DNA of 64,000 bases, from contig JALWZT010000109.1 of the NCBI GenBank assembly GCA_027002405.1, forward strand, positions 4,624 through 68,623, given 5' to 3'. Under the pieces are notes generated by a model that was not told where the DNA came from, did not search any database, and saw only the letters and a program-made list of their open reading frames with translations. Origin of the DNA: Anaerolineae bacterium (GTDB taxonomy: Bacteria; Chloroflexota; Anaerolineae; J102). Both the position numbers and the translations under genes were made by a program. This document shows positions 4,584 through 6,491 of the stretch, piece by piece (positions within the stretch are counted from its first letter, which is position 1; each line of letters begins with the position of its first letter).

Positions 4584-6065
4584 TCACTCCAATCCATACA
4601 ACGCCCACCGCCGGGTCACCCGCTCTTTGATCTCGTCTGACATGCGCACCAGCTCGGGCCATTCCCGGGTGTAGCCCTCTTCGGGCAGCTTGCGGGTGGC
4701 GTCGATGCCGATCTTGCCCCCGAACGCGAATTGGTAGCTGGCGTGGTCCAACGCATCCACCGGCCCGTTCTGGATGATCACATCCCGGCTCCAATCCACG
4801 TTCCCCAGCATGTGGAAAAAGGCCTCCTGCTCGTTTTGCACATCCACATCCTCGTCGAAGATGACAATGGCCTTGGTCAGGGCCATCAGGCCCATGCCCC
4901 ACAGGCCATTGATCACCTTGCGGGCATGGCCCGGATAACGCTTCTTGATGGAGACGAAGATCAAGTTGTGGAACACGCCCGCGGGCGGCATGTTCCAGTC
5001 CACAATCTCCCCCTGGAACAGCTTCATCAGGGGCAGGAACAGCCGCTCCGTGGCCTTGCCCATCCAGTAATCCTCCATAGGGGGCAGGCCCACCACGGTG
5101 GTGGGGTAGATGGCGTCCTTACGATGGGTGACCGCAGTGATGTGGAGGACGGGGTAGAGATCGGGGGGGGTGTAGTAGCCCGTGTGGTCGCCGAAGGGGC
5201 CTTCCACGCGCCGTTCGTTGGGGTCCACCCAGCCTTCGATGACGATCTCCGCGTGCGCGGGGACTTCCAGGGGTTGGCTCACGCACTTCACCAGCTCCAC
5301 AGGCTTGCCCCGCAGCCAGCCCGCCAGCAGGAACTCATCCACGTTGGGAGGCAAGGGCGCGCTGCCCGACCACACCACCGCGGGATCGCCGCCCAGACTA
5401 ATGGCCACAGGGATTTTCTCCACGCCCGCTTCTCGGGCCTCCCGCTCGTGCTCGGCCCCGCCCTTGTGCAACTGCCAGTGCATGCCCAGGGTGCGTTCAT
5501 CATACACTTGCAGGCGGTACATGCCCACATTGCGCACGCCCGTGATGGGGTCTCGGGTGATGACCGTGGGCAGAGTGATGTAGGGGCCACCGTCCTTGGG
5601 CCAGCAGGTGAGGATGGGGAGCCCTGCCAGGGTCGCGGCTTCGCCCGTTTTGACCACCTCCTGCACGGCCGCGTTTTTCACGATTTTGGGCTTCAGCCCC
5701 GCGCTCTTCAGCGCCCCCAGCATATCCTTCGCCCGACCCAGCGCCGGACCCAGCCCCTTGGGCGGGCTGGGATCAATCAGCCGGGCCATCTTCTCATTCA
5801 GCTCCTCCAATTCCTTCACCCCCAAAGCCCAGGCCATGCGCTGGGGATGCCCGAACATGTTGATGAGCACGGGCATATCGGCTCCCAGGACGTTTTCAAA
5901 AAGCAACGCTTGATTCTTTGCCAACGGCCCCTTGCTTACCCGGTCCGCGATCTCGGTGATCTCCAGATAAGGATCAACCGGCGCGGTGATCCGGGTCAGT
6001 TGCCCGCCTTTTTCCAACAGGCGGATGAATTCACGTAGATTTTTATAAGCCATAATCTTACTCAT
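4584..6065 (-). CDS. UbiD family decarboxylase (prenylated-FMN dependent; menaquinone/ubiquinone-type 3-polyprenyl-4-hydroxybenzoate decarboxylase-like)
   Basis: ~494 aa, MSKIMAYKNLREFIRLLEKGGQL N-terminus and overall UbiD-like sequence; start moved to 6065, upstream extension of ORF is frame read-through. Confidence 0.85.
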   Translation of the reverse strand: MSKIMAYKNLREFIRLLEKGGQLTRITAPVDPYLEITEIADRVSKGPLAKNQALLFENVLGADMPVLINMFGHPQRMAWALGVKELEELNEKMARLIDPSPPKGLGPALGRAKDMLGALKSAGLKPKIVKNAAVQEVVKTGEAATLAGLPILTCWPKDGGPYITLPTVITRDPITGVRNVGMYRLQVYDERTLGMHWQLHKGGAEHEREAREAGVEKIPVAISLGGDPAVVWSGSAPLPPNVDEFLLAGWLRGKPVELVKCVSQPLEVPAHAEIVIEGWVDPNERRVEGPFGDHTGYYTPPDLYPVLHITAVTHRKDAIYPTTVVGLPPMEDYWMGKATERLFLPLMKLFQGEIVDWNMPPAGVFHNLIFVSIKKRYPGHARKVINGLWGMGLMALTKAIVIFDEDVDVQNEQEAFFHMLGNVDWSRDVIIQNGPVDALDHASYQFAFGGKIGIDATRKLPEEGYTREWPELVRMSDEIKERVTRRWALYGLE

Positions 6066-6491
6066 GGCATGTAGTCGGCGAAATCTTCCAGAGGAGCGTC
6101 GAAATCCTCGGCCATGAATAAAATCACCCCCTTTGCCGTGCCTAATTGCCGTCGTCTTCGCACTTCGGGTACGACTTCCAACTTCACCAAAGGCTGATTG
6201 CCTCGGGCAATAATGATTTGGGTGCGTCCTATTTCGGTTGAGGCTGTACTCACCGACTGAAGTCGGACACTTAAGGCCTACGGCCAATGGACGGCCTTCG
6301 CCGTCCAGTCGTACGGTCGACGGAGGTCGACCGTCGGCGCGAAGCGCCTAAAGAGTCCGAGTTCACTCGGATAGGAGGCTGGCGCCAACTCATTTAGGAC
6401 GCACCCTAATGATTTCATGACCTTCCAGGGCCTCTTGGATCAACCGAGAGAGATGGATTTGGGCCTGGTGAATAGTTACCTGCTTTTTCAT
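6062..6491 (-). pseudogene. Phd/YefM-family type II antitoxin gene interrupted by a MITE (5' part MKKQVTIHQAQIHLSRLIQEALEGHEI at ~6491-6411; 3' part IIARGNQPLVKLEVVPEVRRRRQLGTAKGVILFMAEDFDAPLEDFADYMP at 6210-6062)
   Basis: both halves translate to a canonical prevent-host-death antitoxin when the 187-bp insert and one TSD copy are removed; TGA stop overlaps ATG of the UbiD gene (ATGA). Confidence 0.7.
6220..6406. mobile_element. MITE-like non-autonomous element, 187 bp, 12-bp perfect TIRs GGGTGCGTCCTA / TAGGACGCACCC, 9-bp TSD TAATGATTT (6211-6219 and 6407-6415), internally palindrome-rich
   Basis: read directly from sequence; TIRs and direct repeats flank insert; no coding capacity. Confidence 0.7.

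Follow-up and report, generated by a model that had tools for sequence, protein, structure and literature searches.

A 187-bp ISKra4-type MITE, very probably of recent insertion, in the antitoxin gene of a decayed toxin-antitoxin module from an Anaerolineae bacterium

When a short piece of non-coding DNA is found inside a gene, one has to ask whether it is a mobile element, which enzyme could have moved it, and what state the interrupted gene is in. These questions are raised by 187 bp at positions 6220-6406 of a 64,000-nucleotide stretch of contig JALWZT010000109.1 (assembly GCA_027002405.1, an Anaerolineae bacterium), referred to here as the window, where they split a gene for a Phd/YefM-type antitoxin. 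We conclude with high confidence that this DNA is a non-coding transposable element of the miniature inverted-repeat kind (MITE) and of the ISKra4 type, recently inserted into the antitoxin gene of a toxin-antitoxin (TA) pair whose toxin gene has been deleted. An original prediction made from the letters of the window had already read the insert as a MITE, and that reading is upheld by an empty site in relatives, by many copies elsewhere, and by a partner element carrying the same ends.

The element has no open reading frame (ORF) of more than 46 codons and is bounded by terminal inverted repeats, which are perfect over 12 of 12 nucleotides (GGGTGCGTCCTA at 6220-6231 and its reverse complement at 6395-6406, the sole two perfect matches in the window) and then continue imperfectly to about 22-23 nt. 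The end at 6385-6406, read on the minus strand (GGGTGCGTCCTAAATGAGTTGG), resembles the left inverted repeat (IRL) of an insertion sequence (IS), since it agrees at 22 of 22 positions with the left ends of six full-length elements of the ISKra4 family described below (L024, L078, L075, L084, L098, and L126), so that the IS-sense of the element is the minus strand. The opposite end at 6220-6242, read on the plus strand (GGGTGCGTCCTATTTCGGTTGAG), resembles the right inverted repeat (IRR), and shares with the right ends of the full-length elements both the 12-mer and the hexamer GTTGAG, the latter common to the IRR of L024 and L098. Both ends are flanked by the 9-bp target-site duplication TAATGATTT, present at 6211-6219 and again at 6407-6415 (repeat family D12). 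The coordinates first proposed for the inverted repeats and the duplication were all correct, as was the length of 187 bp. The insertion had also been called in-frame, which is wrong: the element and one duplication copy add 187+9 = 196 nt, which is no multiple of three, and introduce stop codons, so that the 5' fragment of the gene stops after 33 codons.

An empty version of the site is found in relatives. A protein search with the reconstructed antitoxin as query returned 62 uninterrupted homologues, the top one (P0001, 77 aa, 96% identical) being encoded on L132 (GCA_027013725.1) and on L133, L134, and L135, of which L133 and L135 belong to the 'JOHN19-1' series. Between L132 and the window, identity amounts to 99.0% in the 4 kb adjoining the site on one side and to 96-98% on the opposite side. 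In the alignment, L132 reads ...GGCCATG AAATCATTA TTGCCCGAGG..., with one 9-mer at the exact junction and the insert absent, and the window reads ...CATG AAATCATTA, followed by the 187 bp, a second AAATCATTA, and TTGCC.... The site is also empty in the more distant L136 (GCA_054037575.1, about 89-90% nucleotide identity), and the homologous antitoxin genes of relatives thus lack the 187 bp and carry a single 9-mer, as the MITE reading had anticipated. The insertion itself is found in L001 and L002, two further assemblies of the same population, and is therefore not an artefact of one assembly; the contig of L002 breaks off inside the element after 126 nt, as one would expect of a repeat. Strains with about 99% identity in the adjacent 4 kb can be told apart by the presence or absence of the insertion, which makes it a strain marker. 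The suggestion that the element may be active is supported, as far as recent activity is concerned, by the 99% identical empty-site strain, by the perfect repeats and duplication, and by a copy elsewhere with 98.9% identity.

How widespread the element is can be seen from two scans. The first one, with both 12-mers against a collection of species-representative genomes (the source genome not among them), gave nine loci, and the sole true relative was L009, from a Caldilineales metagenome-assembled genome (MAG), which shares about 26 nt at each end and has another interior. The pattern GGGTGCGTCCTAWWYNNGTTGR, built from the four ends, was then used for a metagenome scan and matched at least 120 stretches. 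Among the matches listed, pairing of ends gave 54 elements, about 48 of them short (72-391 bp, with 102, 187, 90, and 214 bp as common lengths) and six of 1664-1680 bp; perfect 9-bp duplications flank 35 of these 54 paired elements, against 0 in a shifted control. The 187-bp subfamily comprises at least 11 further full-length copies, 72-99% identical to the window element (98.9% in L015, 96.8% in L094, and 88-72% in the others), which sit at unrelated loci of metagenome Ga0256832 and in most cases have perfect 9-bp duplications of their own. The copies are present in both orientations and in many unrelated contexts, at insertion sites relatively poor in long ORFs, a crude measure given that spurious long ORFs are common in GC-rich DNA. 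Several contigs with the 187-bp subfamily share further small repeats with the window, which suggests related hosts. The elements also break metagenome assemblies: among the matches listed, a contig end is found within 250 nt for 38 of the 121 matched ends, against 18 expected.

As for the enzyme, the original prediction had pointed to the 9-bp duplication as a hint at the transposase family and had proposed looking for an autonomous partner. Such partners are found as elements of about 1.67 kb (L024, L078, L075, L084, L098, L126, and L138), each with a single ORF of 515-545 aa between the same ends. The ORFs of L024 and L078 score 279.1 and 280.3 bits against the NCBIfam model NF033572 (ISKra4 family transposase, cut-off 205), whereas the partner transposase reaches 36-52 bits with the ISH6 model (cut-off 240) and stays likewise far under the cut-off of the ISLre2 model; Pfam assigned no family to it. 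L138 is a 1667-bp contig of the 'JOHN19-1' series, as are relatives of the window, and L075 comes from metagenome Ga0256832, alongside the 187-bp subfamily. The partner transposase is only 30-36% identical to the closest named ISKra4-like elements in plasmid records (ISCasp3, ISCasp2, and ISSri1) and, judged by its sequence, represents a distant, unnamed ISKra4 branch. Related transposase proteins number more than 5000, the majority of them on contigs of about 1.7 kb, and the IS/MITE pair appears to be common in some metagenomes.

The ISKra4 family was placed by Guerillot et al. (2014) in p-MULT 4, one of the groups of prokaryotic Mutator-like DDE transposases (PMC3942029). Mutator-like prokaryotic transposases, including the ISKra4 family, are reported to generate 8-9-bp duplications; the inverted repeats of p-MULT 4 elements are 18-39 bp long and end in C, their direct repeats measure 8-9 bp, and Chloroflexi are listed among their host phyla (PMC3942029). 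The ends of about 22 nt seen here (GGGTGCGTCCTAAATGAGTTGG; 3' end ...CACCC, with the terminal C) and the 9-bp duplications fall within these ranges, and the duplication therefore hinted correctly at the family. The window element differs from the ISKra4 family in having no transposase. Some ISKra4 members insert close to promoters (13-17 bp from sigma-A promoters), a habit that does not define the family, and no flanking motif of that kind was seen here in the base composition of 34 oriented empty sites.

The target of these elements is short and strict. In 34 oriented empty sites, specificity is confined to a 9-bp palindrome of the form W4-S-W4, with 80-100% A/T at positions 1-4 and 6-9 and a central G/C in 29 of 34 sites; outside these 9 bp the base composition is at background, and no extended target or promoter motif was found around the 34 sites by base composition. 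The symmetrised consensus is AAAT(G/C)ATTT, in DNA of 57% G+C, and the duplication in the window, TAATGATTT, fits it, the site being occupied by a single AAATCATTA in L132. The ISH6 family (p-MULT 2) duplicates an AT-rich motif, AANATNTT, akin to AAAT(G/C)ATTT (PMC3942029); ISH6 elements differ from ours in their 8-bp duplications, against 9 bp here, and in being mostly archaeal. As a separate observation, L094 carries three MITEs of the family, from two subfamilies, within 4 kb (5345-5571, 8042-8231, and 8960-9146), for one of which the flanking duplication, AGGGGGCGA, is GC-rich, an exception to the AT-rich target rule.

Several findings weigh against the interpretation as an ISKra4-type MITE inserted in an antitoxin gene. 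The window holds neither a second copy of the element nor a transposase, the latter sought by tblastn with the partner transposase. The multi-copy status predicted for the element is borne out in metagenome contigs, by dozens of end-sharing elements and at least eleven copies of 187 bp, but the window itself has one, and these other copies, like the transposase, come from metagenomes of the same study or environment; for this very genome, we infer multiple copies and a partner from those contigs and from the break of the L002 contig. Between its ends, the window element has nothing in common with the full-length IS, BLAST aligning the ends only. The full-length copies L075, L078, L084, L098, and L126, on contigs of 1.8-3.4 kb, have no matching 9-bp duplication (0-6 of 9 positions agree), which we attribute to a likely chimeric assembly of this multi-copy repeat; the contig of the sixth, L024, ends 3 nt beyond the element, too soon to contain the duplication. 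Finally, the reconstructed antitoxin scores 26.8 bits (E 4.5e-6) with the Pfam family PhdYeFM_antitox, slightly below the cut-off of 29.8. A simple deletion derivative of the IS was also considered as the origin of the MITE, and was rejected on finding only the ends in common.

The mechanism that we propose would start from ends of about 22 nt that copy those of the 1.67-kb ISKra4-family IS, with its p-MULT 4 Mutator-like DDE transposase. A transposase produced by a full-length copy, presumably active in the same cell, would act in trans by binding both ends and direct the element to an AT-rich 9-bp site of the AAAT(G/C)ATTT type. Following the known chemistry of DDE and Mutator-like enzymes, staggered cuts 9 bp apart and fill-in would then generate the TAATGATTT duplication. 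The presence/absence polymorphism between strains 99% identical over the adjacent 4 kb lends indirect support to such mobilisation in trans. The insertion broke the Phd/YefM-type antitoxin gene and, together with the deletion of vapC, left a decaying TA module.

The interrupted gene runs on the minus strand from 6491 down to 6062, and the insertion falls within its codons for E-I-I-I. Its 5' fragment (MKKQVTIHQAQIHLSRLIQEALEGHEII..., 6407-6491, minus strand) belongs to an ORF that enters the MITE and meets a stop inside the inverted repeat, and its 3' fragment (...IIARGNQPLVKL...DFADYMP and stop, 6062-6219, minus strand) includes a DUF2281-like C-terminus. Removal of the element and of one TAATGATTT copy restores an uninterrupted protein, just as predicted, except that its length is 77 aa and not 76. 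This protein exceeds the cut-off of the DUF2281 family with 28.6 bits, and nearly all of the 62 homologues, including P0001, have a precomputed PF02604 match. Two substitutions in the 5' fragment, K11Q and T12I, affect positions conserved among the aligned homologues and fit a relaxed constraint and the decay of a pseudogene. Just upstream of the antitoxin start, at 6498-6526 on the minus strand, lies a sigma-70-like match (TTGACT-17-TAAAAT, 10 of 12 positions, with 0.7 chance matches expected in the region), a candidate promoter of the former TA operon.

The fate of the toxin gene emerges from the same relatives. L132 and L136 both encode a 127-aa PIN-domain protein (384 nt; E 1.4e-13 for that of L132) whose gene overlaps the antitoxin gene by ATGA and whose stop is separated from ubiD by 3 nt in L132 and by about 30 nt in L136. 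In the window, the alignment with both shows this PIN gene lost through a deletion that extends almost exactly from its start to its stop codon, leaving a scar of 12 nt, ATGAGTAAGATT, at 6054-6065 on the minus strand (ATGA GTAAG ATT, after which comes the native ubiD ATG at 6053). The original prediction that no cognate toxin is present is thus true of the window strain, and the toxin is absent by deletion of the PIN (vapC) gene that stands between antitoxin and UbiD in both relatives. The same prediction had the TGA stop of the antitoxin overlap the ATG of ubiD. Overlap and frame are real, for an ATG at 6065-6063 overlaps the stop (ATGA, 6065-6062) in frame with UbiD and four codons upstream of it; by comparison with the relatives, however, this ATG is the relic start codon of vapC, and the native UbiD start is at 6053. 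The 493-aa form of UbiD that it would give found no match in an exact look-up. The UbiD-family decarboxylase gene itself (489 aa, 4584-6053, minus strand) lies directly downstream of the antitoxin, and probably relies at least in part on transcripts that cross the broken antitoxin gene and the MITE. One member of its protein cluster carries a name that assigns it to an Anaerolineae bacterium.

In its intact form, this locus resembles the type II modules of the Phd/YefM-VapC (PIN) kind, the relatives having a 77-aa Phd/YefM plus DUF2281 antitoxin that overlaps the PIN gene by ATGA. The window differs from such modules in its deleted toxin and in an antitoxin both split by the MITE and substituted at conserved residues, and is on these grounds a pseudogenised vapBC-type remnant and not a working module.

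Two lesions in one module raise the question of which came first. The toxin was most probably lost before the insertion or simultaneously with it, since breaking the antitoxin in the presence of a live toxin should harm the cell; with the toxin gene deleted, the antitoxin gene was already, or then became, dispensable, and in its disrupted form is a harmless pseudogene. The opposite order, which we consider somewhat unlikely though worth keeping in view, would have the MITE inactivate the antitoxin and free VapC, with the near-exact deletion of vapC selected as a suppressor. The precision of the deletion, which removed vapC and kept ubiD in frame, is the outcome to be expected if the toxin was strongly selected against, and no state was found other than the two extremes, with both genes intact (L132-L135 and L136) or both lesions present (the window, L001, and L002). 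Neither intermediate was found, however, and losing the antitoxin with an intact toxin would be expected to arrest the cell, whereas the toxin-first order needs no such bottleneck and is the simpler one; the substitutions at conserved residues fit relaxed constraint and give no order of events.

The element between the candidate promoter and ubiD is strongly structured, which agrees with its description as densely palindromic. As DNA it folds into a long branched hairpin of -57.9 kcal/mol (z -7.7), and the RNA of either strand has a fold of -103 to -107 kcal/mol (z about -8.6 to -8.8). A scan of 5500-7500 with Rfam 15 at E<=10, introns included, returned only noise, with no family near its gathering threshold. 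In 14 members of the subfamily, 97% of the cells of the consensus fold are paired, and nine pairs show compensatory changes on both sides, mainly in two tip hairpins, a number reached in 0 of 500 shuffles and set against 0-3 in slid controls. The hairpin GGCGCGAAGCGCC (6335-6347) is invariant in 17 subfamily members, and its core, GCGAAGC, is reported to form an unusually stable DNA mini-hairpin. Longer relatives (L118 8176-8445, L108 4101-4421, L022 8007-8327, and L083 1464-1745) consist of the 187-bp scaffold plus one or two extra hairpin modules of about 50-65 nt with C5GC...GCG5 cores, and the family appears to grow by adding such modules.

These features allow two further proposals, both going beyond the identification of the element. 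The first one is that the elements form an undescribed large ISKra4-type IS/MITE branch in uncultured Anaerolineae- or Caldilineae-like bacteria, with a strict 9-bp W4-S-W4 target and with hairpin modules that are added and then kept by compensatory change; as a whole, we hold this to be quite unlikely. If it were true, it would point to Mutator-like transposition having a step that depends on structure (a hairpin of single-stranded DNA or of RNA), or to a host role of the fold, for example in ubiD expression. The second one is that the conserved multi-hairpin fold has a function, as an RNA or single-stranded-DNA module that stabilises, insulates, or attenuates the transcript from the old TA promoter to ubiD, or that serves a hairpin-dependent step of transposition. 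The very stable RNA fold (z about -8.7), the paired cells and compensatory pairs of the 14 members, the invariant hairpin, the whole-module differences of the longer variants, and the position of the element between the promoter-like site and ubiD all speak for it. However, the compensatory changes come from few lineages (L033/L083, L094b, and L009), and palindromic DNA may acquire them through hairpin-templated repair, with no need of selection. Neither an Rfam match nor a T-tract terminator was found, the copies occur in both orientations and many unrelated contexts, and their sites, relatively poor in long ORFs, are such as one would expect a plain parasite under purifying selection to occupy. 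With so few independent events, and with palindromes that repair can maintain, a functional fold is a minority possibility and, in our estimate, an improbable one.

Other readings of the insert fare far worse than that of an ISKra4-type MITE. It might be a palindrome of the repetitive extragenic palindrome (REP) or bacterial interspersed mosaic element (BIME) type, moved by an HUH enzyme of the REP-associated tyrosine transposase (RAYT) class, or else the decayed remnant of a single IS, and in neither case a mobilisable MITE; this we regard as practically untenable. It draws on the same 12-mer being part of a GTAG-headed palindrome, GTAGGGTGCGTCCTACGCACC, abundant in Thiomargarita nelsonii and in two MAGs, one of Competibacteraceae and one of Pseudomonadota, and GTAG-tagged REPs are a known superfamily (PMC3733652). 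Those repeats, however, are hairpins of about 21 nt with other flanks, which align with the window over the 12-mer only, and the window element has a 9-bp duplication, a demonstrated empty site, 22-nt identity to the end of an IS with a predicted DDE transposase, and many copies of the same length. A decayed single IS would not account for recurring copies of 187 bp whose interior bears no relation to that IS. The REP/RAYT class is one of 20-40-nt palindromes that are headed by GTAG or CGTC and lack a target duplication, and does not take in an element of 187 bp with a 9-bp duplication. The remaining eight of the nine loci from the genome collection (L003-L008, L010, and L011) were set aside as unrelated, being this GTAGGGTGCGTCCTACGCACC REP-like palindrome of Gammaproteobacteria, which contains the 12-mer. 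That the insert is a self-splicing intron or the like, leaving the antitoxin functional, has in its favour only a place inside coding sequence and a high degree of structure, and can be dismissed given the lack of any group I, group II, or other Rfam match even at E<=10, the inverted repeats and target duplication that mark transposition, the deleted partner toxin and mutated conserved residues of the antitoxin, and the location of other copies mostly outside long ORFs.

Bacterial MITEs are well known, with Correia, ERIC, RUP, and the cyanobacterial Nezha as examples. The element described here is like them in being short, non-coding, and multi-copy, in having terminal inverted repeats, a target duplication of fixed length, and a long hairpin, and in its ends matched to an IS, from which mobilisation in trans may be expected by analogy. 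It differs from these four examples in the IS family concerned, and from bacterial MITEs generally in that only the ends match the IS, the interior being unrelated, and in that its subfamilies differ by whole hairpin modules. No description of ISKra4-derived MITEs was found in the literature searched, and the present analysis documents a pair of IS and MITE of the ISKra4 type, with its ends, 9-bp duplication, AAAT(G/C)ATTT target, and partner transposase. The kind of element is a known one, here joined by a new member and, it appears, by a large new branch, and the current understanding of transposons and of TA systems is left unchanged.

The surroundings of the antitoxin hold further traces of TA modules. 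The Phd-VapC(PIN) pair is located between a HigBA pair and ubiD, and HigB is a complete protein of 97 aa in the window (7216-7509; Pfam HigB_toxin, E 6e-34), its ORF in L132 (2977-3189) being shortened to 70 aa with a TTG start. A different toxin has been lost in each strain from adjacent modules, HigB in L132 and VapC in the window, and the locus offers a small natural example of the decay of TA modules, in which neighbouring modules decayed differently between sister strains. A third and older TA remnant is probably represented by 6546-6811 on the plus strand, with a 64-aa ORF that aligns with the Phd/YefM profile in the latter's C-terminal half alone (E 0.002) and is also present in L132. 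It is followed, with a GTGA overlap, by a 24-codon ORF (6737-6811, VRVLLDTCVISELQRPKP...) that resembles the start of VapC; this ORF is too short for a Pfam match and had none, the resemblance being to the N-terminus of VapC only.

Apart from the MITE, the window contains several other repeats. A repeat of about 230 bp is present in three copies (650-883, 27974-28179, and 48103-48338), 71-87% identical, with an internal palindrome and a run of ACTGATN heptamers. Another one, of about 155 bp and 87-92% identical, is found at 21733-21903, 28229-28384, and 59130-59283, and partially at 9135-9247 and 35091-35158; it forms a palindrome of CGTTTCACG / GTGATGCG motifs, and pieces of it occur on the MITE contigs L015, L022, L094, and L108. 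A 120-bp inverted pair (17505-17624 and 19300-19419), 89% identical and 1.7 kb apart, matches the end of the L013 contig, and could represent the ends of another mobile element. Large direct duplications are also present, one of them between 50300-51780 and 52695-55489 (about 1.1 kb at 97% and flanking pieces at 96%, in the 50-56 kb region), and the other a tandem pair of 945-bp paralogues, 92% identical, at 11708-12651 and 12722-13666.

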